Position numbers and translations under genes: made by a program. Under the pieces are notes generated by a model that did no database searches, was not told the origin of the DNA, and was given only the letters and a program-made list of their open reading frames with translations. 64,000 nucleotides of DNA from Nitrospirota bacterium (lineage in GTDB: Bacteria; Nitrospirota; JACRHJ01): the NCBI GenBank assembly GCA_963733375.1, contig CAVTDB010000006.1:1-64000 (forward strand), in the 5' to 3' direction. Numbering within the stretch: position 1 is the first letter of the stretch; every line of letters begins with the position of its first letter. This document shows, in pieces, positions 9,938 to 26,820 of the stretch.

Positions 9938-9965
9938 TTGCATTAATCAGTGATTTCTGTATAAT
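9938..9965 (+). promoter_or_regulatory. Putative promoter of the Wood-Ljungdahl cluster
   Basis: TTGCAT-16 bp-TATAAT in the AT-rich region upstream of cooC. Confidence 0.45.
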
Positions 9966-10095
9966 ATGAAGGGCAATTTACTAAAAATAACAAAGGACCG
10001 TCAATAAGAAAAATAAATGGTGGTATAAAATTTACTGATATGAATCTGCATGAGCGGTTGCATTTCACCGTTAATTTCCACCGGAAGGCGAATTG

Positions 10096-10879
10096 ATGAA
10101 AATAGCCATTACCGGCAAGGGAGGGGTGGGCAAAACCACTCTTTCAAGCGTACTTGCCAGAGCCTTTTCTGAAGACGGAAGCAATGTGCTTGCCGTCGAT
10201 GCCGACCCAGATGCGAACCTCGCCCAATCCCTGGGCGTCGCACAGGAAGATATTGATAAAATCCGCCCCATCGCGGAGATGGGGGACCTGATAGAAGAGC
10301 GTACCGGCGCGAAGCCGGGGGCGCCCGGCTCCGTTTTCAAGCTGAACCCCCGCGTCGACGACATACCCGACCAGTTCTCCCACTCCCATAACGGCGTGAA
10401 ACTTCTGGTGATGGGCAAATACAAGACGGGCGGCGCGGGCTGCTACTGCCCCGAAAACGTCCTTTTGAAGAGCCTCGTCCGGCACCTCATTTTAAAGCGG
10501 GACGACGTGGTCATACTCGATATGGAAGCGGGCATAGAACATCTGACGCGCGGCACCTCCGGCTCCGTGGACGCGTTCATCGTGGTGGTGGAGCCCGGCG
10601 GCAGGAGTGTTCAGACCGCGAGGCAGGTGAAGTCGCTGGCGGACGACCTGGGCGTCAGGAAGGTGTATGTGGTCGGCAATAAGGTCCGGACGGAGGAGGA
10701 TAAAAAGTTTATCACTTCCAGCCTGCCGGGGATGGAGGTCATGGGGTTTCATGAGTTACAGCCCCGACGTAATCAACGCGGACCTGGAAGGCCGGGACGT
10801 CTACGGGAACTGTCCGGGGCTGGTGGCCGAAATCAGGACGATAAAGGAAAAGCTGATAAAGCTGGCCAAGGCGGCATGA
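10096..10879 (+). CDS. cooC: CooC/AcsF nickel-insertion ATPase (frameshift near 10745)
   Basis: KIAITGKGGVGKT, DADPDANL, GCYCPEN, DMEAGIEHL; true C-terminus (SYSPDVINADLEG...KLAKAA*) lies in the other frame. Confidence 0.9.
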
Positions 10880-11454
10880 TCGGCGAACTGAAGGCCGTGC
10901 TTCGGAGGGAACTCCTGGCGAAGCGCGACGCTCTCTCACTGGATGAGCGCAGGGGCAGAAGCCTCTCAATCGCGGCGGGCCTTTTTGGTCTCCCGGAATA
11001 TAAAACGGCAGGTTCGGTCCTTTTTTATGTCAATTTCAGAAGCGAAGTGGCGACCCGCAAGATGATAGAAGAGGCTCTCGCGCAGGGGAAGAAGGTGCTG
11101 GTCCCGAAGGTGGACCGCCGAAGCCACGAACTGAAGCTTTTCGAGATAAAGGACCTCTCGACGGACCTGGAAGCCGGATATATGAATATATACGAGCCGG
11201 TGGAAAAAAGGACGCGCGTCGCCTCTCCGGAGGAGCCGGACATGGTGGTGATGCCGGGCGTGGGGTTCGACGAAAAGGGCAACCGGCTGGGGTACGGGGG
11301 CGGATATTACGACAGACTTCTTCTGAAGCTTCGGCCCGGGGTGAAGCTGGTGGCGCTGGCTTTCGAGGAGCAGGTGGTGGACGAGGTCCCGAGCCTCCCG
11401 CACGACAGGAAAGTGGATTTAATAATTACAGAGGCGCGGGTCATAGAGGCTTAA
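10876..11454 (+). CDS. 5-formyltetrahydrofolate cyclo-ligase
   Basis: K..LRRELLAKR, YVNFRSEV, VVMPGVGFDEKGNRLGYGGGYYDR; ATG overlaps the cooC stop (ATGA). Confidence 0.92.
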   Translation: MIGELKAVLRRELLAKRDALSLDERRGRSLSIAAGLFGLPEYKTAGSVLFYVNFRSEVATRKMIEEALAQGKKVLVPKVDRRSHELKLFEIKDLSTDLEAGYMNIYEPVEKRTRVASPEEPDMVVMPGVGFDEKGNRLGYGGGYYDRLLLKLRPGVKLVALAFEEQVVDEVPSLPHDRKVDLIITEARVIEA

Positions 11455-11459
11455 AGCGA

Positions 11460-12018
11460 ATGGACCTTAAAAAAGATCGAAAAAGGCGTAAGGCTCATCC
11501 TGGAAGGCGTCGGCGAAGACCCTGAACGTCCCGGAATAAAAGAGACGCCCCAGCGGGTGGCCAAATTTTACGAGGAGATATTCGCGGGGCTCTCCGAGCC
11601 GACCGACGGGCTATTGGCTCCTATCCGGGGCGAGACCCACGATGAGATGGTGCTCATAAAGGACATACCGTTCTTCTCGATCTGCGAGCACCACCTTACG
11701 CCGTTCTTCGGGAAGGCGCACATTGCCTACGTGCCGTCCGAGGGCAAGATAGTGGGCTTAAGCAAGCTGGCGGCGGCGCTGGAGATACTGGCCAAAAGGC
11801 CGCAGGTGCAGGAGAGGCTGACGGCGCAGTTAGCGGACCTTATAATGGACTCGCTGGGCCCCAAGGGCGCGATGGTGGTAATAGACTGCGAACACCTTTG
11901 CATGTCCATGCGCGGCGTGAAGAAGCCGGGTTCGCGCACGGTTACGTCGGCAGTGCGGGGGATATTCCGCTCCAAGCCATCCACAAGGCAGGAAATGCTG
12001 GAACTGATCAAGAAGTAA
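11460..12018 (+). CDS. folE: GTP cyclohydrolase I (frameshift in A-run near 11470)
   Basis: [47 protein letters not shown]. Confidence 0.93.
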
Positions 12019-12042
12019 ATAACTGAGCAAGAGGGGGAACAA

Positions 12043-12708
12043 ATGATTATTTCGAAGTCGAAAGAGAAAAAGGACGTAATCAACATGCTGGACGGCGTCC
12101 AGAGCGTCTTCCTGATCGGGTGCAGCGAGTGCGCGTCGCTTTGCGGCACCGGCAGCCCGGAGGCGCTCGCGGAGATGAAGCAGTCCCTGGAAGATATCGG
12201 CAAGAAGGTCACCGGCACGTTCGTCGCGAAGACCGGCTGCCAGGTCCTGGGCACGAAGGTGGAGCTTAAAGGGAACAAGGAAGAGGTGGAGGCCGCGGAC
12301 GCTATCCTGGTAATGTCCTGCGGCGCGGGTACCCAGTCCATGGTGGAGGTGTTCAAGGACAAGAAGGTTTATCCGGCCAACGACACCGCCTTCCTTGGCA
12401 ACATGACCCGCTTCCAGCATTTCGACGAGCGCTGCTCGATGTGCGGCGAGTGCATCATAGACAAGACCGGCGGCATCTGCCCCGTCACCACCTGCCCGAA
12501 AGGCATCCTGAACGGCCCATGCGGCGGCACGAACAACGGCTTCTGCGAAGTCAGCCCGGATATAGAGTGCGCCTGGGCCAAGATATATGCCCGGATGGAG
12601 CGCACGGGCGAGCTGGATAAAATGAAAGAGATAATACCGCCGAAAGACTATTCCAAAAAACTATCCCCTAAGGTTTTCGTGATAGAGAAAAAGAAGGAGG
12701 AGAAATAG
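12043..12708 (+). CDS. metV: Methylene-THF reductase small Fe-S subunit MetV
   Basis: GCSECASLC, CGAGTQ, CSMCGEC..TGGICP..CPKGILNGPCGG..C..CAW; adjacent to metF. Confidence 0.9.
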   Translation: MIISKSKEKKDVINMLDGVQSVFLIGCSECASLCGTGSPEALAEMKQSLEDIGKKVTGTFVAKTGCQVLGTKVELKGNKEEVEAADAILVMSCGAGTQSMVEVFKDKKVYPANDTAFLGNMTRFQHFDERCSMCGECIIDKTGGICPVTTCPKGILNGPCGGTNNGFCEVSPDIECAWAKIYARMERTGELDKMKEIIPPKDYSKKLSPKVFVIEKKKEEK

Positions 12709-12713
12709 AGTCT

Positions 12714-13598
12714 ATGAAAAAGCTGAAGGAGGCACTCGAGGCAGGGGAGTTTGTTATAACGGCGGAATGCGGCCCGCCAAAGGGCACTGACATAGCGGAG
12801 ATGCTGGAGCACGCGAAGCACCTGCTTGGAAAGATAAACGCCATAAACGTTACCGATAACCAGAGCGCGGTGGTGCGCATCGGCTCGCTCCCCGTTTGCA
12901 GGCTTCTTAGCGAAATGGGGCACGACCCGATATTCCAGCTCACCTGCCGGGACAGGAACCGTCTTGCCATTCAGTCCGACCTGATGGGCGCGCATATCCT
13001 GGGCATAAAGAACGTGCTCTGCATGACGGGCGACCATGTCTCGGCGGGCGACCACAAGACCGCGAAAGCTGTATACGACCTTGAATCCGTACAGCTCCTC
13101 CAGACCGTGTCGGCCTTAAACGGCGGGCATGATCTTGCCGGCAACGAGATGAAAGGCGCGACCGACCTCTACCAGGGCGCTGTCGTGACCCCGGAGGCGA
13201 ACCCTCTGGAGCCGCAGATGCTGAAGTTCGAGAAGAAGATAAAAGCGGGCGCGAACTTCTTCCAGACCCAGGCGATATACGACATGGATAACTTCAGGCG
13301 GTTCATGGACAGGGCGAGGAAGTTTAACGTCAAGGTACTCGCAGGGATACTGCTCCTGAAGAACGCGGGCATGGCGAATTTCCTGAACAAGTTCGTGCCC
13401 GGGATTACCGTCCCGCAGGAGCTTATAGACAGGCTGAAGGCCGCCGGCAAGGAAGGCGCGCTCGAGTGCGGCATGGACATCGCCGCCGAGCAGGTAAGGA
13501 TAATAAAAGAGCAGGGCATAGCCGACGGCGCCCACGTGATGGCGATAGGCCTTGAGAACAAGGTGCCGGATATTCTGGCGAGGGCGGGGATAGCGTAA
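12714..13598 (+). CDS. metF: Methylenetetrahydrofolate reductase
   Basis: ECGPPKG, NVTDNQSA, QLTCRDRNR, LCMTGD, GANFFQTQ. Confidence 0.94.
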   Translation: MKKLKEALEAGEFVITAECGPPKGTDIAEMLEHAKHLLGKINAINVTDNQSAVVRIGSLPVCRLLSEMGHDPIFQLTCRDRNRLAIQSDLMGAHILGIKNVLCMTGDHVSAGDHKTAKAVYDLESVQLLQTVSALNGGHDLAGNEMKGATDLYQGAVVTPEANPLEPQMLKFEKKIKAGANFFQTQAIYDMDNFRRFMDRARKFNVKVLAGILLLKNAGMANFLNKFVPGITVPQELIDRLKAAGKEGALECGMDIAAEQVRIIKEQGIADGAHVMAIGLENKVPDILARAGIA

Positions 13599-13616
13599 GA
13601 GCACCAGGGGAATTAA

Positions 13617-14411
13617 ATGGCAGTAACGATACCTGAACTATACAAGAAGAAGGCCGAGGGCAAAAAGATTGCCATGCTCACGGCGTATGATTACCCCTTC
13701 GCCCAGATGGCGGACGAGGCGGGTATGGACATAATCCTGGTCGGCGACTCCCTGGGCGTCGTCGTGCAGGGCTGGGCGAACACCCTTCCCGTGACGATGG
13801 AAGAGATGCTCTACCATACGAAGATGGTCGCACGCGCGTCGAAGAACGCGCTGGTGGTAGGCGACATGCCGTTTATGAGCTACCAGTGCGATCTCGGTCA
13901 GGGACTGAAGAACGCGGGTGATTTCTTAAAGGCCGGGGCCGCGGCGGTGAAGCTTGAAGGCGGCTCCTGCGTAACAGAGCTTATCTCGGCCCTTTCCCGC
14001 TACGACATACCGGTCATGGCGCACATAGGCCTGACGCCGCAGTCCGTCCACAGGATGGGCGGGTTCAAGGTGCAGGGGAAAGACGAAAGCCAGGCCGAGA
14101 AACTAATCGCGGACGCCAGGGCGGTAGAGGAGGCGGGCGCTTTCTCGGTGGTGCTGGAAGGCATACCCAGGCAGGTGGCGAAGCAGATTACGGAGGCGCT
14201 TTCGATACCCACGATAGGCATCGGCGCGGGTCCGGACTGCGACGGGCAGGTGCTCGTTATGCACGACATGCTGGGGATGTTCGACCGCTTCGTGCCGAAG
14301 TTCGTGAAGCGCTACGCGAACATAAAAGAGACGGCCATAAAAGCCATCGCGCAGTACAAGCAGGAAGTGGAGTCGGGCGAGTTCCCTTCCGATAAAGAGA
14401 GCTTTCATTAA
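13617..14411 (+). CDS. panB: 3-methyl-2-oxobutanoate hydroxymethyltransferase
   Basis: [47 protein letters not shown]. Confidence 0.96.
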
Positions 14412-14415
14412 AGTC

Positions 14416-14515
14416 GTTACTTTCTTTTCAGGTGAAAAGAAAGTAACACAAAGAAAAGCCGGGTTTAAAGTCCCGCTTTCTTTTGGTACTTTTCTTTCTC
14501 GCGAAAGAAAAGTAC
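14416..14515. repeat. AT-rich composite palindromic (REP/MITE-like) element, copy 1
   Basis: GTTACTTTCTTTTCA-GG-TGAAAAGAAAGTAAC and GTACTTTTCTTTC-TCGC-GAAAGAAAAGTAC hairpins; related element at 24382. Confidence 0.75.
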
Positions 14516-14529
14516 GAAAGGTTTAAAAA

Positions 14530-15262
14530 ATGCCTGAAGCAAAATTAAAAGTAATCCTGCTGGAGCACACTCCGAACCCGGAGAACGTGGTGGCGATGGC
14601 GGCGAAGCTCTGCTACAGCCAGTCCGACGTGGAGGGCCTGCGCGGAAAGATTCTGGCGAAGGACCAGAAGGACTTCGTGGAGAAGCTGGTGTCCATTGGC
14701 CATATGTCGCCGGTGGAGCATATCTCTTTCACCTTCGGCATCGAAGGCATATCAAGGGCTTGCTCGCATCAACTGGTGCGGCACCGGGTAGCTTCGTATT
14801 CCCAGCAGTCCCAGCGGTACGTCAAGGAAACGGAATTCGATTATGTGATACCGCCGACGGTGAAGAACGACAAGAAGCTGACCGCCTCGTTCAATAAATA
14901 CATGAAGCAGGCCCAGAAGGCATACGACGAGATTATGAAGGGACTGGCGGAGCAGGGGATAACGGGCGAGACGGCCCAGCAGGACGCAAGATTTCTCCTG
15001 CCGAATGCGGCGGAGACGAAGATAGTGGTGACGATGAACGCCAGAGAGCTGCTCCACTTCTTCCGGGTACGCTGCTGCAACCGGGCGCAGTGGGAGATAC
15101 GGGCCATGGCCACGGAGATGCTGCGGGAGGTAAAGAACGTCGCCCCGGTAATATTCAAGGGCGCGGGCCCCGGCTGCCTCAATGGGCAAATGCCCGGAAG
15201 GCAAGATGAGCTGCGGAAAACAAAAAGAGGTCAGGAAGAAGTTTTTCAAGAACAAAATATAA
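14530..15262 (+). CDS. thyX: FAD-dependent thymidylate synthase (frameshift near 15185)
   Basis: GHMSPVEH, SRACSHQLVRHRVASYSQQSQRYV, ARFLLP, AQWEIR; C-terminus CPEGKMSCG..KNKI* in the shifted frame. Confidence 0.93.
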
Positions 15263-16028
15263 TGCCAGCATTTACGATAGCGGTCGCCGGGAAGGGCGGC
15301 ACGGGCAAGACCACCCTGACGGGACTCCTTATACGCTATTTGACAGAGAAGAGGAAGGGCCCGGTTTTGGCCGTGGACGCGGACGCCAATTCGAACCTGA
15401 ACGAAGTGCTGGGCGTCCACTGCGAGGGCACGGTAGGCGAGCTCCGGGAGGAGGCGCTGGAGACCGTGGGGAGCAGGCCGCACGGCATGTCGCTTGACGA
15501 GTACCTTGACATGCGCATCGCGCAGGTCATGACGGAGGCGAAAGGCTTCGACCTCCTCGTAATGGGCCGCCCGGAAGGGCCGGGCTGCTACTGCGCGGCG
15601 AACAACGTAATCAGGAAATACACGGACCACCTGCTGGACAGCTACCCATATATCGTGACGGACAACGAAGCCGGGCTGGAGCATCTCTCCCGCAGGACGA
15701 CCCAGGACACGGACCTCCTGCTGATTATTTCGGAACCCTCCGTGCGCGGGATACTCACCGCCGGGCGGGTGAACGGGATAGTGGACGAGCTGGGGCTGAA
15801 GGTAGGCAAACGGGCTTTTATCGTCAACCGCGTGAATGGCAATGGGCTTCCGGCGGAGCTTGAAGAGACCGTGGAGAAGCAGGGGCTCTCCTTGGCGGGT
15901 ACTGTGCCGGTGGACGATCTGATTACGCAGTACGACATGCAGGGGACGCCGCTGGCCAAGCTACCCTGATGATTCTAAAGCGGTCGCGGCGTTTTATAAG
16001 ATTTTAGATGAATCTGGAAATACCTTGA
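15262..16028 (+). CDS. cooC: Second CooC/AcsF paralog (3' end frameshifted, end approximate)
   Basis: IAVAGKGGTGKT, DADANSNL, MGRPEGPGCYC, DNEAGLEHLSR; TAATG overlap with thyX. Confidence 0.88.
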
Positions 16029-16891
16029 AAAAAATTTCGATAATAGGCGCGGGCGTTGTCGGCTCGGCCGTGGGCAGGCTGCTTCGGGAGAGGGGATACG
16101 AGATACAGTCGGTCGTTTCCCGGGGTCTACAAAATGCCCGAAATGCGGCCTCCTTCATAGGCGCAGGCGAACCGGGGACTGACCCGGTAAAGGGCGCATC
16201 CGGGGCCGACTGGATTTTCATCACTACGCCGGACAAGGCAATCCAGGGGACCTGCGAAAAAATAGCCCAAGGCGGCGGTTTCGGCAAAGGGTCGCTTGCG
16301 GTGCATATGAGCGGAGCGCTCGGTTCGAAAATACTGGACTCCGCGAGAAAAGCCGGGGCCGGCGCTCTATCGATACACCCGATGCAGAGCCTGGCGTCGT
16401 CCGAACAGGCGGTAAAAAATTTCCCCGGCTCGTACTTCAGCATCGAGGGCGACGCTGAATCGGTGCCGGAAGGAAAAGAGATAGTGGAGGCCCTGGGCGG
16501 GCTACTGGTGATGATACCGGGCGAGCAAAAAGCCCTGTACCATGCCGGCGCGGCGGTGGCCTCCAATTACCTGGTCGCCGTACTGGACTTTGCAGTGATG
16601 ATCTACGAGGCGCTGGGGATGAAGCGGGACGAGGCGGTCAAGGCCATCATGCCGCTTGTCCGGGGCACGGTAAATAACGTGGAACGGGTGGGCGTGCCGG
16701 ATGCCTTGACCGGGCCGATAGCGAGGGGTGACGTCGAGACGGTGGAAGGGCACCTGGAAGTGTTGAAGAAAGACCTGCCGGAGATGGTTTCGCTGTATAC
16801 GGCCCTGGGCAGGCATACGGTTAAAGTCGGCCTTGCGAAAGGCTCGCTTGCCGAAGAGGACGCCGCAAGGCTAAGGAAGATTTTAAAATAG
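16025..16891 (+). CDS. panG: Rossmann-like + DUF2520 protein, PanG-type ketopantoate reductase candidate
   Basis: IIGAGVVG, ITTPD, HMSGAL, HPMQS, YHAGAAVASNY, LTGPIARGD; near panB. Confidence 0.75.
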   Translation: MKKISIIGAGVVGSAVGRLLRERGYEIQSVVSRGLQNARNAASFIGAGEPGTDPVKGASGADWIFITTPDKAIQGTCEKIAQGGGFGKGSLAVHMSGALGSKILDSARKAGAGALSIHPMQSLASSEQAVKNFPGSYFSIEGDAESVPEGKEIVEALGGLLVMIPGEQKALYHAGAAVASNYLVAVLDFAVMIYEALGMKRDEAVKAIMPLVRGTVNNVERVGVPDALTGPIARGDVETVEGHLEVLKKDLPEMVSLYTALGRHTVKVGLAKGSLAEEDAARLRKILK

Positions 16892-16975
16892 CGGGCGATT
16901 CCGGAAACAGAATTTCCGGGTTAATTATATAAGCAACGTCGGGTACTTTATCGCGAAAGGGAGGGCAGGAAAGAT

Positions 16976-17767
16976 ATGCTGATTATCGGAGAGAGGATTA
17001 ACGTAATAACAAAGCTCCAGCGTCAGGCGATGATGGACAGGAACAAGGGCCCTATTCAGGAGATGGCCATTAACCAGGTCAAGTGCGGAGCCGGGATGCT
17101 GGACATCAACATCGGGCCAGCCGAAGAAAAGGGCGACGAGCTGATGGACTGGATGGTCAAGACGGTGCAGGAAGTGGCGCACGTCCCCCTGTGCCTGGAC
17201 ACCACCAACCCGGTCGCGATGGAAGCGGGACTTAAAGCCCACGACAACACCTGGGGCCGCGCCCTGATAAACTCCGCTTCCGGCGAGGAGGAGAGGCTGA
17301 ACATGATGATGCCTCTGGCCGGGAAGTACAACTCGCTGATAATCGGGCTCACGCTCAACAAGCAGGGCATCCCCGCGCTGGCCGAGGACCGTTGCGCCAT
17401 CGCCGCGGAGATAATGGGCAAGGCGGTCGAGTGCGGCGTCCCGATGGAAGATATATATCTCGACCCGCTCATCATGCCGGTGCCGTTCTCGCAGGAGAAG
17501 AGCCTCGAGTCCATCCGCGCGATAAGGATGTTCAGGGAGCTGAACGACCCGCCGATGAAGACTGTCGTCGGCTTGTCAAATATATCGAACGGGGCGCCCA
17601 AGGAGCTCCGGCCTCTCCTCAACCGCGTATATACCGCGCTTTTGATGTACGAGGGGTTGGATTCGGCGATCATCGACCCGCTGGAGAAGGAGATGATCGA
17701 CGTCATAAAGACCGTTGACATCCTGATGGGGAAAACACTCTACGCGCACAGCTATCTGGAAATGTAA
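16976..17767 (+). CDS. acsE: Methyl-THF:corrinoid iron-sulfur protein methyltransferase
   Basis: IIGERIN, LDINIGP, LCLDTTN, LINS, DPL, GLSNISNG. Confidence 0.92.
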   Translation: MLIIGERINVITKLQRQAMMDRNKGPIQEMAINQVKCGAGMLDINIGPAEEKGDELMDWMVKTVQEVAHVPLCLDTTNPVAMEAGLKAHDNTWGRALINSASGEEERLNMMMPLAGKYNSLIIGLTLNKQGIPALAEDRCAIAAEIMGKAVECGVPMEDIYLDPLIMPVPFSQEKSLESIRAIRMFRELNDPPMKTVVGLSNISNGAPKELRPLLNRVYTALLMYEGLDSAIIDPLEKEMIDVIKTVDILMGKTLYAHSYLEM

Positions 17768-17778
17768 AGGGGGTAAAA

Positions 17779-18720
17779 ATGGCTTTCGTAGTTCCGAAGG
17801 AAACGTATAACGGCAAGGTCTATGAAGTCGAGATCGGGACCGGACCCAGGGCAGTCAAGATAGGCGGAGAGAATACGCTGCCTTTCCTGGCCTTCGAGGG
17901 TTCCGTGCCGAACAAGCCTGTCATAGCCTATGAGATACAGGACGTGCCGCCAGAGGACTGGCCGCAGACGCTCCAGGATGTTTATAAAGATGTAAGCTCC
18001 GACCCAGTGAAATGGGCGAAGCACTGCCAGGACGACCTGGGCGCCAAGATGATAGCCCTCCGGCTTATCGGCACGCACCCGGACAGGCAGAACAGGACGG
18101 CTGAAGAGGCCGCGAAGACCGTAAAAGACGTCCTGGCGGCGATAGACGTGCCGCTTATAATACTGGGCAGCAATAACGCCGAGAAGGACGCGCAGGTCCT
18201 CAAAAGCGCCTGCGAGGCCGCTCAGGGCAAGAACTGCCTTATCGGAAAGGCGCAGGAAGCAAATTACAAGACCATAGTCGCGACGGCGATGGCGGCCGGA
18301 CACAAGCTGGTCGCGATGAGCGATCTAGACGTGAACCTGGCAAAGCAGCTCAACATCCTCATCACCCAGATGGGCTTCGACAAGGATAAAATCGTCACCG
18401 ACCCGATGTCTTCCGCCCTGGGCTACGGCATAGAGTATACCTACTCCGTCATGGAGAGGATACGCTCCGCGGCGCTCTTCCAGAACGACGCGACGATGGC
18501 CCCGCCGATGGTGAACGACGTGGGGATGTACGTATGGAAGGTAAAGGAGACGATGGCGCCGGAGGCCGACCAGCCGATGTGGGGGCCGGTCGAAGACAGA
18601 GGCATAGGATGGGAAGCCACGACTGCCATGAGCTTCCTTATGGCCGGGTCAGACCTGCTCATCATGCGCCACCCGAAGGCTATCGAGACGGTGGCCAAGA
18701 TGATCGATGAGCTCGTTTAA
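17779..18720 (+). CDS. acsD: Corrinoid Fe-S protein small (delta) subunit
   Basis: KIGGENTLPF, DVNLAKQLNI, LGYGIEYTYSVMER, IMRHP. Confidence 0.95.
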   Translation: MAFVVPKETYNGKVYEVEIGTGPRAVKIGGENTLPFLAFEGSVPNKPVIAYEIQDVPPEDWPQTLQDVYKDVSSDPVKWAKHCQDDLGAKMIALRLIGTHPDRQNRTAEEAAKTVKDVLAAIDVPLIILGSNNAEKDAQVLKSACEAAQGKNCLIGKAQEANYKTIVATAMAAGHKLVAMSDLDVNLAKQLNILITQMGFDKDKIVTDPMSSALGYGIEYTYSVMERIRSAALFQNDATMAPPMVNDVGMYVWKVKETMAPEADQPMWGPVEDRGIGWEATTAMSFLMAGSDLLIMRHPKAIETVAKMIDELV

Positions 18721-18743
18721 CGAAAGAAAGGAGATAAAATAAA

Positions 18744-20087
18744 ATGGCTCTGTCCGGCGTAGAAATTTTTAAACATTTGCCGAAGACGAACTGCAAGAAA
18801 TGCGGCCATCCTACCTGCCTGGCGTTCGCGATGAAGTTAGCTGCGAAGCAGGCCACGCTCGACGCCTGCCCCGACGCATCGGAAGAAGCGAAGGCGTTCC
18901 TCGGCGCGGCCTCCGAGCCGCCGATTAAAGGCATCACCATCGGCGCGGGAGACAAGGCGCTGAAGGTCGGCGAGGAGACTGTGCTCTTCAGGCATGAGAA
19001 GAAATTCGTAAACCCCTGCGGGTTTGCGCTTGCTATCAAGGATACCGACACGGAGATCGAGGCCAAGGCTAAGGCCGTCGCCGAGTCCGAAATCGAGCGC
19101 GTGGGCCAGAAGCTTCGCATCGAATTAATCGCGGTGGAAAATGCCTCCGGCGACCCGGCGACATTCGCCGCCGCCGTGGCAAAGGCGGCTTCCGCCGCCC
19201 CGTCCGCGGGTATCATCCTGGTGTCGGAGAACCCCGCCGCCATCGAGGCCGCGCTGCCGCACGTCGCGGGCAAAAAGCCCCTTATCTGCGGCGCGAACGC
19301 GGACAATCTCGATGCGATGGTAAACCTCGCCAAGAGTTCAGGCTCGTCACTTTCCGTGAAGGCAGACGGGGTGGACGCAGTCTCACAGTTGACTGAAAAA
19401 GCAGTCGGGATGGGCTTCAAGGATATCGTCATCGATACCGGCGCAAGAAAGCCCAAGGACATGATAGAACAGTACACACAGGTACGCCGCGCCGCTCTGA
19501 AGAAGGGTTTCAAGCCGCTCGGTTTCCCGATTATTTCTTTCGCGGTCAATTCAGACCCATACGTCGAACAGGCGTTGGCAAGCGTGGCCATCGCGAAATA
19601 CGCGTCCATCATCGTGCTCTCGGATATTTCCAGGTGGAAGACGGTCGCGCTCATCTCGCTTCGGCAGAACATCTATACGGACCCGCAGGTCCCGATGCAG
19701 GTGGGGCAGAATATATACAAGGTCGGCGACGCCAAGGAGAACGCGCCGCTCCTTATCACGACGAACTTCTCCCTTACGTACTTCATCGTGCTGGGCGAGG
19801 TGGAGAACTCGAAGGTGCCGAGCTGGCTTGCGGTCATGGAGACGGAAGGGCTTTCGGTGCTGACAGCGTGGGCGGCGGGCAAGTTCACCGCGGCGAAGAT
19901 CGCGCAGTATATCCAGGAATCAGGCATTGAAAGCAAAATCTCCAATAAGGAGTTGATAATACCCGGTTACGTGGCTGTCCTCTCGGGCGCGCTCGAAGAC
20001 AAGCTGCCTGGCTGGAAAATTACGGTAGGGCCGAGGGAAGCCAATGCGCTCCCGGCATTTCTCAAGAACAAGACGGCTGCCGCTTAA
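18744..20087 (+). CDS. acsC: Corrinoid Fe-S protein large (gamma) subunit
   Basis: LPKTNCKKCGHPTCLAFA, NIYTDPQ, TTNFSLTYF, SVLTAWAAGKF, VGPREA. Confidence 0.96.
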   Translation: MALSGVEIFKHLPKTNCKKCGHPTCLAFAMKLAAKQATLDACPDASEEAKAFLGAASEPPIKGITIGAGDKALKVGEETVLFRHEKKFVNPCGFALAIKDTDTEIEAKAKAVAESEIERVGQKLRIELIAVENASGDPATFAAAVAKAASAAPSAGIILVSENPAAIEAALPHVAGKKPLICGANADNLDAMVNLAKSSGSSLSVKADGVDAVSQLTEKAVGMGFKDIVIDTGARKPKDMIEQYTQVRRAALKKGFKPLGFPIISFAVNSDPYVEQALASVAIAKYASIIVLSDISRWKTVALISLRQNIYTDPQVPMQVGQNIYKVGDAKENAPLLITTNFSLTYFIVLGEVENSKVPSWLAVMETEGLSVLTAWAAGKFTAAKIAQYIQESGIESKISNKELIIPGYVAVLSGALEDKLPGWKITVGPREANALPAFLKNKTAAA

Positions 20088-20108
20088 GCGGGCAAGGAGG
20101 TTGTATTT

Positions 20109-22319
20109 ATGTCGAGACACATTGCAGCAGCGGCCATACGCGGCTCTCACAAGATAGTCGCCGAGGCGGAGGAAGCGCTGAATAAGGCTATAGCGGCCAA
20201 AGGGGAAGAGTATAAGTTCGAGTTCCCCGATACCGCATTTTATCTCCCTCATGTCTTCGGCATGACCGGCATGAAGGTGGAGACCCTGGGCCAGATGAAG
20301 GATGCCCTGGACTACGCGAAGGGTATGCTCTCCGCGGAACCGGCGGCAAACGAGTACCTGCCATACCTGGGCGAGACGCTGGACGCGGGCCAGGCCACGC
20401 TCTTCGCCGAGGAGATACTGCTCGCGGCCAGGTACGTCCTGGGCCTGGAGCCTGTCGTCGATGGCGACCTGACTTATAACGGGTTCATCACGGACACGAT
20501 ACTCAGGGACCTGGGTGTCCAGCTTGTCGACGGCACCATGCCGGGCTTCGCGGTTATAATCGGCAAGGCCCCGACCGACGAGATAGCCGTCGAGATATGC
20601 CGCGACCTCCAGCAGAGAAATATCCTGACCTTCCTCTGCGGCAACGTGGACGGCGACAACGTGGCCAAACAGCTCCTCAGGAAGGGCGTGGAGATAGGCT
20701 GGGACGCAAGGCTGGTCGCGCTCGGGCCGGAGACCTACCACGCGCTCTACGCGGGCGACTGGGCATGCAGGGGCGCCCTGATGTTCGGCGGCAAGAAGGG
20801 CGGCGACGCGCTCAGCGTCCTTAAATATAACAAGGACCGCGTCTTCGCATTCGCAATGGTCCTGGGTCCGATGAGCGACCTGATATGGTCCACCGGCGCG
20901 GGCGCAATCACCTACGGCTTCCCGGCGATATGCGACACGGAAGTCCCGGAAATCCGCCCCACGGGCGTCTGCACCTACGAGCACGTCGTAAGCCAGACAG
21001 ACCATAAGAAGATAGTGGATACATGCGTGGAGACCAGGGGCCTGAAGATCATCATAACCAAGGTCCCGGTCCCCGTCGCGTACGGCCCTGCATTCGAAGG
21101 CGAACGCATCAGGAAGGAAGACACCGTTTTCGAGTTCGGCGGGACGAAGTCCGCGTCGTTCGAGTGGGTGACGGCGAAGGAGTTGTCCGACATAGAGGAC
21201 GGCAAGATCGAGGTCATCGCATCGGCGGAGACCCTGGCCAAGATCGAATCGGCCGCGCCCGGCAAGGCGGTTCAACTCCCGATGGCGCTGATGATAGAAG
21301 TCGCGGGCAGGAAGATGAACCCGGACTTCGAGCCGGTAATAGAGCGCAAGCTCCACGACTACATAAACTGCGCCCAGGGCGTCTGGCACATGGGCCAGAG
21401 AGACGTGAACTGGATGAGGATATCCGCGCAGGCCTTTAATGACGGCTTCCGGATAAAACACCTTGGCGACATCGTTTACGTTATGGTGAAAAATAAGTTC
21501 CCCGCCATCGTGGACAAGGTTCAGGTGAAGCTGTACCTGGACGACGACAAGGTGAAGGAAATACAGGAGCAGGCGAGGGCGGTCTATAAGGCCAGGAACG
21601 AGAGGGTATCGACCCTGACGGACGAGTCCGTGGATACTTTCTACTCCTGCCTGCTCTGCCAGTCCTTCGCGCCGAACCACGCCTGCGTCATCTCTCCGGA
21701 GAGGCTGGGCCTGTGCGGCGCGTACAACTGGCTGGACGCCAGGGCGGCCTACGAGATAGACCCCACCGGCCCCAACCAGCCAGTACTGAAAGGCGAGTGC
21801 ACGGACGAATTCAAAGGGCGGTGGAAGGGCGTCGACGATTACGTATTCCAGGCTTCCCACCAGACGCTTGAAGGTTTCTCGGCGTACTCCATAATGGACG
21901 CGCCGATGACCTCGTGCGGCTGCTTCGAGTGCATCGTGGCGCTTGTGCCGGAGGCCAACGGGTTCATGGTCGTGAACCGCGGCTATACCGGAATGACGCC
22001 CATCGGGATGAAGTTCTCGACGCTCGCGGGTACGGTCGGCGGCGGCGTGCAGGCCCCCGGCTTCGGCGGCATAGGGAAGTTCTTCATCACGTCCAAGAAG
22101 TTCCTGAGGGCGGATGGCGGACTGAGGAGGCTGGTATGGATGCCCAAGTCTCTGAAGGAGGCCCTGCGCGAAGACCTGATAAGGCGTTCCGAGGAGGAAG
22201 GCATGCCCGGTTTCATCGACATGATATGCGACGAGACCGTAGCCGAGGACAGCGAGAAGATGCTGGAGTTCCTGAGCGAAAAAGGCCACCCGGCGCTTAC
22301 GATGGATTCAATTCTGTAG
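20109..22319 (+). CDS. acsB: Acetyl-CoA synthase
   Basis: FPDTAFYLP, YGPAFEGERIR, FYSCLLCQSFAP..PERLGLCG, A-cluster PMTSCGCFEC. Confidence 0.97.
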   Translation: MSRHIAAAAIRGSHKIVAEAEEALNKAIAAKGEEYKFEFPDTAFYLPHVFGMTGMKVETLGQMKDALDYAKGMLSAEPAANEYLPYLGETLDAGQATLFAEEILLAARYVLGLEPVVDGDLTYNGFITDTILRDLGVQLVDGTMPGFAVIIGKAPTDEIAVEICRDLQQRNILTFLCGNVDGDNVAKQLLRKGVEIGWDARLVALGPETYHALYAGDWACRGALMFGGKKGGDALSVLKYNKDRVFAFAMVLGPMSDLIWSTGAGAITYGFPAICDTEVPEIRPTGVCTYEHVVSQTDHKKIVDTCVETRGLKIIITKVPVPVAYGPAFEGERIRKEDTVFEFGGTKSASFEWVTAKELSDIEDGKIEVIASAETLAKIESAAPGKAVQLPMALMIEVAGRKMNPDFEPVIERKLHDYINCAQGVWHMGQRDVNWMRISAQAFNDGFRIKHLGDIVYVMVKNKFPAIVDKVQVKLYLDDDKVKEIQEQARAVYKARNERVSTLTDESVDTFYSCLLCQSFAPNHACVISPERLGLCGAYNWLDARAAYEIDPTGPNQPVLKGECTDEFKGRWKGVDDYVFQASHQTLEGFSAYSIMDAPMTSCGCFECIVALVPEANGFMVVNRGYTGMTPIGMKFSTLAGTVGGGVQAPGFGGIGKFFITSKKFLRADGGLRRLVWMPKSLKEALREDLIRRSEEEGMPGFIDMICDETVAEDSEKMLEFLSEKGHPALTMDSIL

Positions 22320-22331
22320 GAGGGAATAGAA

Positions 22332-24336
22332 ATGAGCGAAGAGAAAAAAGAAAAGAGGAAGGCGTCGAGCATTGACAAATGCGCGGTAGACCTTCTCAAA
22401 TACGCGGAGGAGTGCAATATACCGACCGCATTCTCCAGGTCTGACAACATGAAGGCCTGCCCGATAGGCTCCGAGGGCGCCTGCTGCAAGATATGCGCGA
22501 TGGGGCCATGCCGCCTGAAGAGCAAGGACGGCGAAGACGCCCTCAGGGGCGTATGCGGCGCGAGCCTCGCGACAGTCACCGCCAGGAACATAGCCCGCAT
22601 GGTGGCCGGCGGCACCGCCGCCCATTCCGACCACGCGAGAGACGTGGCGAACACCCTGCTGGCGGCGGCGGAGGAGCATACCAAGGACTACCAGATAAAG
22701 GACGTGGAGAAGCTTCTGGCGGTCGCGAACAAGTTCGGCATAGACATCGCGGGCAAGTCGAAGAACGAGGTCGGGAAAGAAGTGGCGGAGTTCGCGCTCA
22801 AGGATTTCGGACAGCAGAAGGGCGAGGTCTCCTACATCCGCACCGCGACAAAGAAACGCCAGGAGTCTGTGGCGCGAGCTTGGGCTTGTCCCCAGGGGCG
22901 TGGACCGCGAGGTCTGCGAGCTTATGCACAGGACGACGATGGGCGTGGACACCGACCCCGAGGACATACTCGATTCGGCGCTCAGGACTTCGCTTGCCGA
23001 CGGCTGGAGCGGCTCGATGATAGGCACGGACTTCTCGGATATCCTGTTCGGGACCCCGAAACCCCTTAAGAGCGAGGACAGCCTGGGCGCGTTCCAGGCA
23101 AAGCACGTCAACATCGTCGTCCACGGGCACGAGCCGACGCTCTCCGAGATGATAGTGGTCGCCTCTGAACTTCCGGACATGATAGAGTACGCCAAGTCCA
23201 AGGGCGCGGAGGGGATAAACCTGGTCGGCATGTGCTGCACCTCGAATGAGATACTGCTGCGCCACGGCATAAAGTCCGCGGGCGGCTTCTTGAACCAGGA
23301 GCTTGGGATACTGACGGGCGCGGTCGAGGCGATGGTCGTGGACGTGCAGTGCATAATGCCTGCGCTCGGTGAAATAACCAAGGGCTTCCACACGAAGCTC
23401 GTCACCACCTCTCCAAAGGGCAGGATACCCGGCGCTACGCATGTCGAGTTCGACGAGCTGCATGCGATGGACGTGGCCAAGAAGATAGTCCGGCTCGCCT
23501 GCGACAACTTCCCCAACAGGAAGGACACCCGCATACCGGATTCCGGGAAGGCGATGGTCGCCGGTTTCTCCCACGAGTACATCAAGTACATGCAGGGCGG
23601 CAGGTACAGGGGCTCCTTCAGGCCGCTTAACGACGCCATCATCTCCGGGCGCATCCGGGGACTGGCGGGCATAGTCGGCTGCAACAACCCCCGCATCGAC
23701 CAGGACAGCCTCCACGACTACCTGGTGCGCGAGCTGATCGCGAACGACGTGCTGGTCGTGCAGACCGGCTGCGGCGCGCATGCCTCCGCAAAGGCCGGAC
23801 TGATGACACCGGAGACGATGGAGATGGCCGGGCCCGGCCTCCGGGAGGTATGCGAGGCGATAGGCATCCCGCCGGTCCTGCACATGGGTTCCTGCGTGGA
23901 CAATTCCCGCATCCTTACCGTCCTCACCGCGGTCGCGCAGGAAGGCGGCTTAGGCGATGACATCTCCGATATCCCTGTCGTCGGCATCGCGCCGGAGTGG
24001 ATGAGCGAGAAGGCGCTTGCTATCGCGTTTTACGCCGTGGCCTCAGGGCTGTACGTCATCTTCGGCGTAGAGTCCCCCATCGCGGCTTCGCCCACCGTTC
24101 AGAAATTAATGAGCGAGGGCTGGGAGAAGAAGATCGGCGGGAAGCTCGAGTTTATCCCCGGAAAAGAGGAAATGCTCGCGGCTACGCTCGCGCATATCGA
24201 CAAGAAGCGCGAGGCCCTGAAGCTCCGTAAGTACGAGAAGGGCAATTTCGGCGTCGAGAAGGTCCTGATGGACATGGCCGACCGCCGCAAGCTGGAGGCG
24301 TCCGCCCAGGCCCACAAAGGGATCGGCGGCATTTAA
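22332..24336 (+). CDS. cooS: Anaerobic Ni-CO dehydrogenase catalytic subunit (frameshift near 22866)
   Basis: CPIG..G.CCKICAMGPC, GTAAHSDH, VHGHEP, GMCCT, VDVQC, GCNNP, TGCG, HMGSCVDNSR, PEWMSEKA. Confidence 0.96.
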
Positions 24337-24346
24337 ATATTATGCA

Positions 24347-24376
24347 GGGGCGGCCTTAGCTGGCCGCCCCTTTTTT
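24347..24376 (+). terminator. Rho-independent terminator after cooS
   Basis: GGGGCGGCC-loop-GGCCGCCCC followed by T6. Confidence 0.8.
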
Positions 24377-24381
24377 AAACC

Positions 24382-24482
24382 GTTACTTTTCTTTTGGAAA
24401 AAAGAAAAGTAACACAAAAGAAAACCAAAGTTAAAAACAGTTTAAAAGTTTTTGGCGTTACCTTTTTACCAAAAAGGTAACG
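24382..24482. repeat. AT-rich composite palindromic element, copy 2
   Basis: GTTACTTTTCTTTT-GGAA-AAAAGAAAAGTAAC-ACAAAAGAAAA, plus CGTTACCTTTTT-ACC-AAAAAGGTAACG. Confidence 0.75.
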
Positions 24483-24527
24483 GTTTGTTTTTATTTTTCC
24501 AAGAGTCCGAAAAGGAGGATTTACGGG

Positions 24528-26236
24528 ATGGCAAAGAAAAAGGTGGGCAGCGATATCGAGATAGCCCAGGCGGCGAAAATGCTGCCTATAGGACAGGTAG
24601 CAAAGAAGCTGGGACTCAAGGAAGACGAACTCGAATATTACGGGAAGTATAAGGCGAAGGTCGAGCTTTCCGTCCTCGACAGGCTGAAGAAGAAAAAGAG
24701 CGGCAAGTTAATAGACGTGACCGCCATCACCCCGACCCCGCTCGGAGAGGGCAAGACCACGACCTCCGTGGGCCTGGCGATGGGCATGAACCTGATCGGC
24801 AAGAACACGGTGCTGAACATACGCCAGCCGAGCCTTGGGCCGGTTTTCGGCATAAAGGGCGGGGCCGCTGGCGGAGGATATGCGCAGGTCGTCCCGATGG
24901 AGGACTTCAACCTCCATTTCACCGGCGACATCCATGCCATCGGCGCGGCGCACAACCTGCTTTCCGCTTTCGTGGAAAACCACCTCTACCACGGCAACAA
25001 GCTTAATATCGACCCGCACTCCATCACCTGGCGCAGGGTCATGGATATCTCCGACAGGAGCATCAGGGAGATAATCACGGGCCTGGGCGGGAAGCTGAAC
25101 GGCTATCCCCGCGAGTCCGGCTTCGATATCACCGTGGCTTCCGAGGTCATGGCCATAATGGCCCTCACCACCAGCCTCAAGGACCTGAGGGAGAGACTTT
25201 CCCGCATAGTCATCGGGACGACCTTCGACGGCAAGGCCGTCACCGCCGAGGACCTTAAATGCGCGGGCGCGATGGCAGTGCTCCTCAAGGATGCGATTAA
25301 GCCGACGTTGGTGCAGACCCTGGAGAACACCCCGGCGTTCGTCCACTGCGGACCGTTCGCGAACATCGCGCACGGAAACAGCTCGATAATCTCCGACCAG
25401 ATGGGCGTGAAGCTCGCGGATTACGTAGTTACGGAATCCGGGTTCGGCGCGGACATGGGCGCGGAGAAGTTCATGGATATAAAATGCCGCTATTCCGGCA
25501 TTACCCCGTCCTGTGTCGTCATCGTCGCTACTATCCGGGCGCTGAAGATGCATGGCGGCACTGCGAAGGTCATCGCGGGCAAGCCGCTTCCGAAAGAGCT
25601 GGTCAATGAAAACCTCGACTGGCTCCGCGAGGGTTGCAAGAACCTGGCCAAGCAGATTGAGAACATGAAGTACTTCGGCGTGCCTGTCGTCGTCGCGGTG
25701 AACGCGTTCGCCACGGACACGAAGAAGGAGATAGACCTTTGCAGGAAGCTCGCCGTTGAGGCGGGGCCGAGGATGCGGTAACCAGCACGCACTGGGCGGA
25801 CGGCGGCAAGGGTTCTACCAAACTCGCTGAGGCGGTTGTCAAGGCCTGCGACAAGCCGAGCAAGTTCAAGTTCCTCTACCCGCTCGACGCTTCTATAAAA
25901 GAGAAGATAGAGACTATCGCGAAGAAGATATACAACGCTAAGGAAGTCACCTACGCGCCGGCGGCGGAGAAGAAGATAAAGCTATATACCGATCTTGGCT
26001 TCGACAAGCTCCCCATATGCATGGCGAAGACCCATCTCTCCATCTCGCACGACCCCGCGATGAAGAACGTGCCTTCCGGTTATACGTTCCCCGTGCGGGA
26101 CATCCGTGCCTCAGTGGGAGCGGGATTCCTCTATCCGCTGTGCGGCGACATGAGGACCATGCCGGGACTGCCTTCTTCCCCGGCAGGCGAAAGGGTGGAT
26201 TTGGACAAGGACGGCAAGATATTGGGGCTCTTCTAA
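24528..26236 (+). CDS. fhs: Formate--tetrahydrofolate ligase (frameshift near 25765)
   Basis: [65 protein letters not shown]. Confidence 0.96.
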
Positions 26237-26248
26237 TCCGCGAAAAAT

Positions 26249-26296
26249 AAAACGAAAATAAAGGGAGGCGCACGCGCCTCCCTTTATTTTCGTTTT
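26249..26296. terminator. Long-stem terminator after fhs
   Basis: AAAACGAAAATAAAGGGAGGCGC-AC-GCGCCTCCCTTTATTTTCGTTTT perfect inverted repeat. Confidence 0.8.
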
Positions 26297-26509
26297 CCCA
26301 TTTGCAATATTTTCCGTTTTCTGCTAAAACGATACATAAAAATATACTTAACTTGAGTAATAGTGCGCATGTTTTCTGAGCGGAAAATGAAAAAGTGATA
26401 TAATCAAGCAATATGCATCTTTCAACTGATAAATTAATTAATTACTGATAATTATTTATGTTTATGCCTGCAAAGGGAATCCGAAGGCGGGATAAAAAAA
26501 TTGCAAGGT

Positions 26510-26819: not shown

Positions 26820-26820
26820 C

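Follow-up and report, generated by a model that had tools for sequence, protein, structure and literature searches.

The acetyl-CoA synthase locus of the window, by which we mean the whole 64,000-nt stretch of Nitrospirota DNA analysed here, is probably (roughly two chances in three) a one-carbon supercluster typical of an uncultured Nitrospirota family, in which three older neighbourhoods stand side by side and bring THF-sharing housekeeping genes next to Wood-Ljungdahl genes. The first would be a folate and C1 housekeeping block (IclR, cyclo-ligase, folE or folD, metF, panB) that appears to occur in Nitrospirota families without acetyl-CoA synthase as well. The second would comprise thyX, a CooC/AcsF-like ATPase and a DUF2520 reductase of predicted PanG type, and the third acsE-acsD-acsC-acsB-cooS followed by fhs. 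Such proximity could allow methylene-THF supply, from the side of Fhs, FolD and MetF, to be expressed jointly with the three sinks that draw on it, namely the methyl branch, dTMP and ketopantoate. The enzymes are ordinary and known throughout, and any novelty would lie in the arrangement only. With folate and pantoate genes inside an acs cluster, the locus apparently represents a known type of cluster in a form not described before. An earlier, sequence-only reading of this DNA had put the arrangement forward as a candidate for an undescribed one, and no paper describing panB, thyX and a DUF2520 gene within an acs cluster was found in open-access full text and bioRxiv.

Fifteen co-oriented genes occupy positions 10096-26236 of the plus strand in the order cooC1, fcl (5-formyl-THF cyclo-ligase), folE, metV, metF, panB, thyX, cooC2, the DUF2520 gene, acsE, acsD, acsC, acsB, cooS and fhs (Table 1). 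The sequence-only reading had proposed this run, and it is real: Pfam calls on the window agree with NCBIfam identities on G001, an intact sister assembly. AcsB, CooS/AcsA, AcsC, AcsD and AcsE are encoded together, as in a CODH/ACS cluster, and their G001 orthologs all score above cut-off. The Wood-Ljungdahl methyl branch is represented by fhs and metVF in the cluster, and by folD, in two pieces, on contig C16 of the same genome (G000). PanB is assigned at equivalog level, and the ThyX translation contains RHRVAS, which we take to be the RHRxxS motif of that family. panB gives a single match in G000 and each sister genome, the DUF2520 gene is single-copy, and ThyX is the sole thymidylate synthase found (one ThyX and no ThyA in 5/5 genomes). 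Both CooC/AcsF-type ATPases carry a CYC (Cys-x-Cys) sequence, presumably the metal site; in cooC2 a GKGGxGKTT P-loop and CYC align with CooC1 of PDB 3kje, its best PDB match. Among formate-dehydrogenase-related genes, Pfam showed fdhD at 27572-28348.

Table 1. Features of the cluster and its flanks (positions in the window; scores on G001 refer to the orthologous protein)
Feature	Position	Strand	Evidence
IclR-family regulator	8928-9737	+	Pfam HTH_IclR + IclR_C; 358 nt 5' of cooC1
cooC1, CooC-type Ni-insertion ATPase	10096-10879	+	260 aa, extra base 10750 skipped; G001: 185.9 bits vs C. hydrogenoformans CooC1 (PDB 3kje)
fcl, 5-formyl-THF cyclo-ligase	10876-11454	+	192 aa; PF01812; G001: TIGR02727 170 bits (cut-off 84.9)
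folE, GTP cyclohydrolase I	11460-12018	+	PF01227; 185 aa, extra base 11475 skipped; G001: TIGR00063/NF006826 above cut-off
metV, MTHFR small subunit (DUF5981)	12043-12708	+	PF12225, 126.5 bits
metF, methylene-THF reductase	12714-13598	+	PF02219, 161.8 bits
panB, ketopantoate hydroxymethyltransferase	13617-14411	+	PF02548, 398.7 bits; G001: TIGR00222 353.2 bits (cut-off 207.55)
Two REP-like palindrome copies, panB-thyX spacer	14418-14445, 14487-14514		
thyX, flavin-dependent thymidylate synthase	14530-15262	+	PF02511, 253.5 bits; 243 aa, extra base 15181 skipped; G001: TIGR02170 207 bits (cut-off 87.9)
cooC2, second, more divergent CooC/AcsF-like ATPase	15262-16028	+	254 aa, extra bases 15963, 16013 skipped; 69.1 bits vs 3kje
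Rossmann-like + DUF2520 oxidoreductase, probable PanG-type ketopantoate reductase	16025-16891	+	PF10727 + PF10728
acsE, methyl-THF:CoFeSP methyltransferase	16976-17767	+	PF00809; G001: NF005719 275 bits
acsD, CoFeSP small subunit	17779-18720	+	PF03599; G001: NF003376 450 bits
acsC, CoFeSP large subunit	18744-20087	+	PF03599 + PF04060; G001: NF003195 579 bits
acsB, acetyl-CoA synthase	20109-22319	+	PF18537 + PF03598 + PF19436; G001: NF040764 999 bits
cooS/acsA, Ni-CODH	22332-24336	+	PF03063 in two pieces; 667 aa, extra base 22867 skipped; G001: intact, 667 aa, TIGR01702 608 bits
Terminator-like GC hairpin + T-run, 3' of cooS	24346-24371	+	
REP-like palindromes after cooS hairpin	24384-24411, 24456-24482		
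fhs, formate-THF ligase	24528-26236	+	PF01268, 672 bits across profile positions 2-398, C-terminal rest in another frame; 569 aa, missing base 25765 allowed for
Perfect 23-nt inverted repeat, terminator-like on both strands, 3' of fhs	26249-26296		

Gene identity and order thus stood, but the damage that 1-nt indels do to the open reading frames had been overlooked. Alignment to G001 and a second sister assembly, G002, showed indels found only in the window at 10750, 11455, 11475, 15181, 15963, 16013 and 22867; a further one at 25765 was seen against G002 only, because the G001 contig stops before it. As assembled, cooC1 and the cyclo-ligase gene form a single ORF of 453 aa (10093-11454), thyX and cooC2 another of 479 aa (14530-15969), folE is reduced to 153 aa from 11557, and cooS (22332-23069 and 22900-24336) and fhs (24528-25781 and 25760-26236) are each split in two. 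With at least seven frameshifting indels within 16 kb of a metagenome-assembled genome (81% complete, 5.2% contamination), one might think of a chimeric contig, or of true gene fusions or pseudogenes in a decaying cluster. That is very improbable and largely refuted already. Every cluster gene is separate and intact in G001, and the indels are most likely assembly errors, as are the resulting fused and split ORFs, because neither G001 nor G002 has them, nor do short-read contigs from other public runs, which carry the G001 state at 11455, 11475, 15181 and 22867. Similar breaks in unrelated genes, with panC in three pieces and both folD and H+-PPase in two, also indicate consensus errors. A chimeric contig is ruled out because metagenome contigs and five further assemblies from the family show the same order, and this recurrence excludes chance as well.

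The arrangement is indeed not unique to one assembly, as shown by a survey of acsB neighbourhoods in Nitrospirota genomes, to which 80 metagenome loci were added. All 15 genes are found in order at 5/6 loci of the window's own family (f1), and the sixth, G005, lacks thyX only. In a second family (f5), metV-metF-panB-(thyX)-cooC2-DUF2520-acsEDCB is present at 13/13 acsB-centred loci, with thyX at 11 of them; G015 and G040 have the same order, and the f5-type metagenome contig L092 has cooC1-fcl-folE upstream too. Partial forms occur elsewhere, with thyX-cooC2-DUF2520-acsEDCB in f2 (1/1 locus), thyX...cooC2...acs in f27 (2/2) and cooC2-acs in f11 (6/6). Among 27 loci from 14 other families, with 20 kb fetched per locus, panB was never found near acsB.

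The arrangement also tracks the inheritance of AcsB. In the AcsB tree, a branch with SH-aLRT 100 sets f1, f5 and f2 (23 rows) apart from the rest, and the arrangement is co-inherited with this one AcsB group. The PanB tree, like that of AcsB unrooted and from a quick search, gives a single group per family (support 96 for f1, 99 for f5), which is the expectation under vertical descent, and does not resolve the relations among f1, f5 and f2. Could the order then be neutral synteny, kept by ancestry and low rearrangement in small genomes with no co-expression or selection on order? Consistent with this, 27 of the 40 acsB loci are without panB, thyX or DUF2520, and most Nitrospirota families with acsB hold acsEDCB-cooS only. 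Parts have been lost or replaced singly (no thyX in G005, a transposase gene in the thyX slot of G094, no thyX match in G217), and cooS and fhs lie 3' of acsB in f1, not in f5. We nevertheless consider neutrality distinctly unlikely. The order is kept between f1 and f5 down to 45-70% protein identity, and MetVF holds its position although the two families have differing types (35-43% identity), with an additional Fer4_20-Pyr_redox_2-FlpD protein in f5. Moreover, a DUF2520 gene and panB stand side by side in many contigs that are unrelated, and the embedded enzymes all work on THF-bound C1 units or on the product of PanB.

How the supercluster may be transcribed is suggested by its junctions, measured with erroneous indel bases read through. 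Start/stop overlaps, reported earlier at several junctions, are found at three (cooC1/fcl, 4 nt; thyX/cooC2, 1 nt; cooC2/DUF2520, 4 nt), and the remaining junctions are gapped. Gaps are short from fcl to panB (fcl-folE 5, folE-metV 24, metV-metF 5, metF-panB 18 nt) and from acsE to cooS (acsE-acsD 11, acsD-acsC 23, acsC-acsB 21, acsB-cooS 12 nt), and longer at panB-thyX (118 nt), DUF2520-acsE (84 nt) and cooS-fhs (191 nt). These three spacers, together with the strong terminator-like hairpin 5' of fhs, argue for more than one transcription unit. Three to four are predicted, with tentative boundaries: cooC1-panB; thyX-DUF2520, perhaps running on to cooS; acsE-cooS; and fhs alone. A search among RNA sequencing runs gave none that contains this stretch. 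The panB-thyX spacer is occupied by repeat hairpins and shows raised depth and many joints in metagenome contigs; the REP-like palindrome is spread genome-wide, with 130 copies or more across 2.39 Mb. Promoter-like and terminator-like elements in the region are no more numerous than in shuffles (10 vs 8.3 and 21 vs 21.1, respectively).

The sequence-only reading had seen here a "self-provisioning" cluster that co-regulates carbon fixation with both carrier cofactors and sets the biosynthetic drains beside MetFV. Taken as a single operon or regulon of adaptive value, perhaps controlled by IclR, it would tune carbon fixation with folate and CoA synthesis and place the methylene-THF drains under the same control. 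Co-orientation, the three overlaps and spacers mostly of 5-24 nt would suit such a unit, as would the IclR gene 5' of cooC1 at 6/6 f1 loci, the conservation in two families and the co-inheritance with AcsB. The thymidylate synthase slot even outlives a swap of enzyme: G038, whose genome has no ThyX, reads panB-ThyA-like-cooC2. On present evidence we think this reading unlikely, and "self-provisioning" an overstatement. Within the cluster, folate synthesis is represented by folE only and pantothenate synthesis by two genes only, while folK-panC and folD are on other contigs and a PanE-family reductase is present in the genus (a G001 protein with 147.9 bits, TIGR00745 cut-off 141.35). The hairpin before fhs and the repeat-filled spacer before thyX also speak against one unit, and a search for riboswitches found none. 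Furthermore, the link between metF and panB extends beyond carbon fixation. Away from acs genes, folD-metF-panB occurs in G027 and G019, fcl-folD-metF-panB in G014, fcl-folD-panB in G026, and an IclR gene stands 5' of fcl...panB in G016; the families of these five genomes gave no acsB match.

The DUF2520 protein is most likely a PanG-type ketopantoate reductase that would convert the PanB product into pantoate, a prediction based on domains and gene neighbourhood. It has PF10727 (42.4 bits) and PF10728 (124 bits), both above cut-off, and matches PDB 2i76 with E 1.8e-28. FTT1388 of Francisella is reportedly PanG, a ketopantoate reductase. Besides the panB of the cluster itself, the DUF2520 gene adjoins panB (same strand, <500 nt) in 33 of the 80 unrelated metagenome loci, which supports the PanG-type assignment and gives the earlier "panG-like" label independent backing. 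It does not make up for a lack of PanE, which would be a supporting feature and not a strict requirement: PanE matches are found in 8/11 f1 and 35/64 f5 genomes as well as in G001, so the DUF2520 enzyme is not required as the only reductase. It is also conceivable, but improbable, that the protein is no ketopantoate reductase here and serves as an NAD(P)H-dependent reductase with an acs-tied role. In the phylum sample, DUF2520 is present in 83/401 genomes and only in acsB-bearing families (f1 9/11, f2 5/6, f5 58/64, f26 7/13), with none in three large families without acsB (0/76 in f9, 0/28 and 0/40), so an acs-tied role would fit too. The place between cooC2 and acsE in f1, f5 and f2, the separate contig of panB in f2 (G021) and the co-existing PanE-family candidates point the same way. 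Against it, the metagenome relatives next to panB (37-49% identity) have no acs gene in view, and the f26 gene and acsB are on different contigs in G198 and G291, the two genomes compared. Also, according to PMC4572677, DUF2520 proteins are homologous to the tested Francisella ketopantoate reductase FTT1388.

We compared the cluster with known systems. Francisella PanG shares with the DUF2520 protein the Rossmann-like N-terminal and DUF2520 C-terminal domains and a genomic link to panB, a likeness drawn at the level of the DUF2520 family, whose tie to the Francisella enzyme is taken from PMC4572677. In the window, in contrast, thyX and cooC2 separate the gene from panB, and PanE-family candidates co-exist. 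Clusters II and III of Acetobacterium woodii resemble the window in grouping acsE, acsD, acsC, acsB and cooS/acsA with two CooC-type ATPases, and have metV-metF and fhs nearby (PMC6925170). The A. woodii gene lists in that paper have neither panB nor thyX, in agreement with the earlier claim that model acetogen acs clusters are without them; the DUF2520 reductase, folE and the cyclo-ligase, all present in the window cluster, are not known from model acetogen acs clusters either. Conversely, the window cluster showed no folD and no acsV/RACo-type or hdr/mvhD genes, and its core order, acsE-acsD-acsC-acsB-cooS, differs from that of model acetogens. The acs clusters of Moorella thermoacetica and Clostridium ljungdahlii presumably have a layout like that of A. 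woodii. The acs-less Nitrospirota runs (G027, G019, G014, G026) have no acs, metV, thyX or DUF2520 in the loci seen, and folD where the window has folE-metV. They share with the window a panB that is tightly linked and co-oriented with methylene-THF enzymes and cyclo-ligase, with metF/panB overlaps of 1-4 nt.

The plus-strand segment 10096-26236 carries fifteen genes, which were identified with Pfam as encoding a CooC-type ATPase (cooC1), 5-formyl-THF cyclo-ligase (fcl), GTP cyclohydrolase I (folE), metV, metF, panB and thyX, followed after thyX by a second CooC-type ATPase (cooC2), a Rossmann-like/DUF2520 oxidoreductase, acsE, acsD, acsC, acsB, cooS and fhs. NCBIfam concurs on these identities in the intact orthologs of one sister assembly, mostly above curated cut-offs, and the gene list and coordinates of the sequence-only reading were correct. 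An IclR-family regulator gene is located 358 nt upstream of the cluster, with a leader at 9738-10095 between the two; a response regulator gene and fdhD (Pfam) follow downstream.

As assembled, a 453-aa ORF spans cooC1 and fcl, joined by a junk-like Arg/Gly/Pro linker, a 479-aa ORF spans thyX and cooC2, and cooS and fhs are each broken across two frames. Three-way alignment with two same-genus sister assemblies (G001 and G002) shows window-only 1-nt indels at 10750, 11455, 11475, 15181, 15963, 16013 and 22867; another, at 25765, comes from comparison with G002 only, as the G001 contig stops short of the site. All cluster genes are separate and intact in G001 (140 contigs), and contigs from other public runs agree with the G001 state at 11455, 11475, 15181 and 22867. 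We read the fused and split ORFs as probable consensus errors, neither gene fusions nor pseudogenes. The window's genome is a MAG of 2.39 Mb in 26 contigs (81% complete), and near-identical DNA is found in part in soil, peat and wetland metagenomes. Elsewhere in this MAG, panC is broken into three pieces, and folD and the H+-pyrophosphatase gene into two each; G002 has frameshifts of its own in acsC, acsB and fdhD. We take these breaks, too, for consensus errors. The sites concerned outside the cluster are 48778-50890 and 28845-30287 of the window and, on two other contigs of the MAG, C10 (58011-58807) and C16 (30790-31324). They include a single ORF for an EamA transporter together with an NT5C nucleotidase, which may be falsely fused as well. 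Users of the assembly should be aware that its frequent single-base indels produce false fusions and pseudogenes. In the corrected models, neighbouring genes overlap at three junctions, with 4 nt shared at cooC1/fcl and at cooC2/DUF2520 and 1 nt at thyX/cooC2, which bears out the start/stop overlaps proposed for several junctions. The remaining spacers are mostly 5-24 nt; longer ones separate panB from thyX (118 nt), the DUF2520 gene from acsE (84 nt) and cooS from fhs (191 nt).

Corrected gene models and palindrome copies in the cluster
Feature	Position	Strand	Remark
cooC1, corrected	10096-10879	+	indels read through
fcl, corrected	10876-11454	+	indels read through
folE, corrected	11460-12018	+	indels read through
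thyX, corrected	14530-15262	+	indels read through
cooC2, corrected	15262-16028	+	indels read through
cooS, corrected	22332-24336	+	indels read through
fhs, corrected	24528-26236	+	indels read through
palindrome copy	14418-14445		panB-thyX spacer
palindrome copy	14487-14514		panB-thyX spacer
palindrome copy	24384-24411		cooS-fhs spacer
palindrome copy, variant	24456-24482		cooS-fhs spacer

The run represents an acs cluster variant that is conserved. When loci were centred on panB (20 loci from 20 genomes, window proteins mapped by tblastn), all 15 genes were found in the same order at five of the six loci from the window's own family, f1; in the f1 genome G005, only thyX is missing from that order. 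For a sample of genomes, we also surveyed 40 acsB-centred loci from 15 families, extending about 12 kb upstream of acsB, with a tblastn cut of E 1e-8; acsB itself was detected in 205 of 401 genomes of the phylum. In family f5, all 13 loci have metV-metF-panB followed by cooC2-DUF2520-acsE-D-C-B, with thyX at 11 of them, and two genomes of the panB-centred survey (G015 and G040) have an f5-like order too. The neighbourhood survey proposed by the sequence-only reading thus shows that the arrangement recurs beyond the window's assembly, whole in f1 and nearly so in f5. On L092, an f5-type metagenome contig, cooC1-fcl-folE is also present upstream, and a 698-aa Fer4_20/Pyr_redox_2/FlpD (MvhD-like) protein is encoded between it and metV (L092:3332-5428). 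The place of cooS after acsB on this contig is taken by NuoE-like, NuoF-like and molybdopterin (formate dehydrogenase-like) genes (L092:16733-20139). Smaller portions of the order were also seen: thyX-cooC2-DUF2520-acsEDCB with panB elsewhere at the one f2 locus, thyX close to cooC2-acs at both f27 loci, and cooC2-acs at all six f11 loci and one of two f25 loci. The other acsB families have acsEDCB-cooS alone, and panB was near acsB at none of the 27 loci outside f5 in this survey, for which 20 kb each was fetched. The survey thereby provides uncultured Nitrospirota with a synteny marker at the level of families.

Comparison of gene trees for co-inheritance with the acs genes, also proposed earlier, was made for AcsB and PanB. 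In a quick maximum-likelihood tree of AcsB (49 rows, unrooted), a branch with SH-aLRT 100 separates f1, f5 and f2 (23 rows) from all other rows, and these are exactly the families in which cooC2 and acsE flank a DUF2520 gene. The tree of PanB (34 rows, unrooted) has one group per family (f1 96, f5 99, f2 99), with the branching order among the three not resolved. These trees fit vertical descent of AcsB and PanB and an arrangement that arose once, without proving either.

What could be the role of the embedded folate, pantoate and thymidylate genes? One reading is that in autotrophic Nitrospirota the 15-gene run would be one regulon, perhaps IclR-controlled, that apportions methylene-THF among acetyl-CoA, dTMP and pantoate/CoA, with selection keeping the DUF2520 gene and a slot for thymidylate synthase beside the CooC/AcsF-like ATPase. 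We consider it unlikely, at roughly one chance in seven. Selection for the slot would account for the ThyA-like gene that stands precisely where thyX would be in another family. The embedded genes have housekeeping roles: each genome has a single panB match, and in five genomes (G000, the window's own, and G001, G006, G003 and G015) the cluster thyX is the sole ThyX, with no ThyA matches. ThyX is absent and a divergent ThyA-family gene is present in G005, G094 and three f13 genomes (G038, G141 and G204). In G038, this gene (L019:5501-6214; 237 aa, 50 bits to PF00303) is located exactly between panB and the cooC2 ortholog, distant from the acs genes, and it looks like one type of thymidylate synthase was replaced in place by the other. 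In G094 (f5), the same slot is occupied by a DDE transposase gene (L042:13413-14828), and the ThyA-like gene is elsewhere.

Selection for DUF2520 beside the ATPase would likewise account for its distribution in the phylum, where DUF2520 was found in 83 of the 401 sampled genomes, restricted to acsB-bearing families. A single-protein query of genome contigs returned nine loci, comprising close kin and three distant ones without acs context. The protein has Rossmann-like and DUF2520 domains and resembles the NADP-oxidoreductase structures 2i76 and 3d1l; according to PMC4572677, oxidoreductases of the DUF2520 type are homologous to FTT1388 of Francisella, which has been tested as a ketopantoate reductase. 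We searched metagenomes with a profile of 13 orthologs and examined the best 80 of 577 loci. At 33 of these 80, panB and the DUF2520 gene share a strand and are no more than 500 nt apart (usually 20-50 nt), and none of the 33 has an acs gene in view, though contigs may be redundant. Another 11 of the 80 have the cooC2-DUF2520-acsE context, and many others are too short for judgement. This is good neighbourhood evidence for the predicted role of the DUF2520 protein as the partner of PanB, i.e. a PanG-type reductase, and broadly supports PanG-type ketopantoate reductase as a name for DUF2520 proteins. On two metagenome contigs, the DUF2520 gene is alongside metVF with panB out of view, in the orders cooC1...fcl...folE...metV-DUF2520...metF (L086) and acsE...metV-metF-DUF2520 (L096). 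Complementarity between DUF2520 and PanE across families was expected and is unsupported: PanE matches occur alongside DUF2520 in 8 of 11 f1 and 35 of 64 f5 genomes. This co-occurrence counts against DUF2520 being the exclusive ketopantoate reductase. G001 has one PanE-family protein over the NCBIfam cut-off and a second, weaker one adjoining folK-panC. These last two genes are adjacent and co-oriented, with the weak PanE-like gene convergent (L082:3217-4595), and link folate and pantothenate genes a second time in this genus.

Promoter and terminator counts in the region are no higher than in shuffles, and only two hairpins are individually strong: a terminator-like one 3' of cooS (24346-24371) and one after fhs, where 26249-26296 holds a perfect 23-nt inverted repeat. 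An Rfam scan of 8500-28000 with an E limit of 1 produced six matches far below gathering scores, all on repeat or terminator spacers, and no riboswitch. The panB-thyX and cooS-fhs spacers share a 26-30-nt palindrome (arms about 12 nt, loop 2-8 nt), which we considered as a shared operator of the cluster and rejected, since it occurs at least 130 times across the 2.39 Mb of the genome, often as intergenic pairs spaced by about 69 nt, which marks it as a REP-like repeat. Where metagenome contigs are aligned, this repeat causes raised depth and false joints. A search of public sequencing runs found no RNA run that contains the stretch, and the one RNA run aligned (X24) gave only five short pieces at 90-99% similarity, with flanks diverging from the stretch. 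Co-transcription is putative, and we expect three or four transcription units.

The panB-metF portion also occurs without acs genes. No acsB match was found in families f9 (0/76 genomes), f4 (0/7), f8 (0/11) and f6 (0/3). Genomes of families without acsB matches carry folD-metF-panB, in which stop and start codons overlap (G027 and G019), fcl-folD-metF-panB (G014), fcl-folD-panB after recN (G026) and iclR...fcl...panB (G016). Genes for the cyclo-ligase and the methylene-THF enzymes thus belong, with panB and even the IclR gene, to a phylum-wide folate/C1 neighbourhood, which in f1 and f5 adjoins thyX-cooC2-DUF2520-acs. The link between metF and panB appears to be older than the acs link, or independent of it. 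A recN gene is found a few genes upstream of fcl in the window (3548-5302) and directly upstream of fcl-folD-panB in G026 (L029:16329-17990), a shared placement that hints at an old syntenic block. MetVF identity between f1 and f5 is only 35-43%, compared with 45-76% for the rest of the cluster proteins, and f1 MetF shares 54-57% identity with its counterpart in the acs-free f9, so the slot is retained and the type of enzyme in it differs. The methylene-THF reductase may be coupled to different electron carriers in f1 and f5.

The interpretation given in the sequence-only reading was half right. A conserved and apparently undescribed variant of the acs cluster stands, but the cluster is not the self-contained cofactor factory implied by "self-provisioning", and the panB-metF portion, present also in acsB-free families, is a general Nitrospirota trait and not an adaptation to carbon fixation. 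Were the gene order to reflect co-expression, it would be a natural design in which an autotroph links C1 carbon-fixation flux to its dTMP and pantoate/CoA sinks, and such coupling of methylene-THF sinks would be of interest to those who model and engineer the Wood-Ljungdahl pathway. Among open-access full texts and bioRxiv preprints, none joins Wood-Ljungdahl, panB and thyX, and the arrangement is absent from titles and abstracts on Nitrospirota Wood-Ljungdahl clusters. That acs clusters of model acetogens lack panB and thyX holds for Acetobacterium woodii, whose clusters as listed in PMC6925170 are without any of the genes embedded here.
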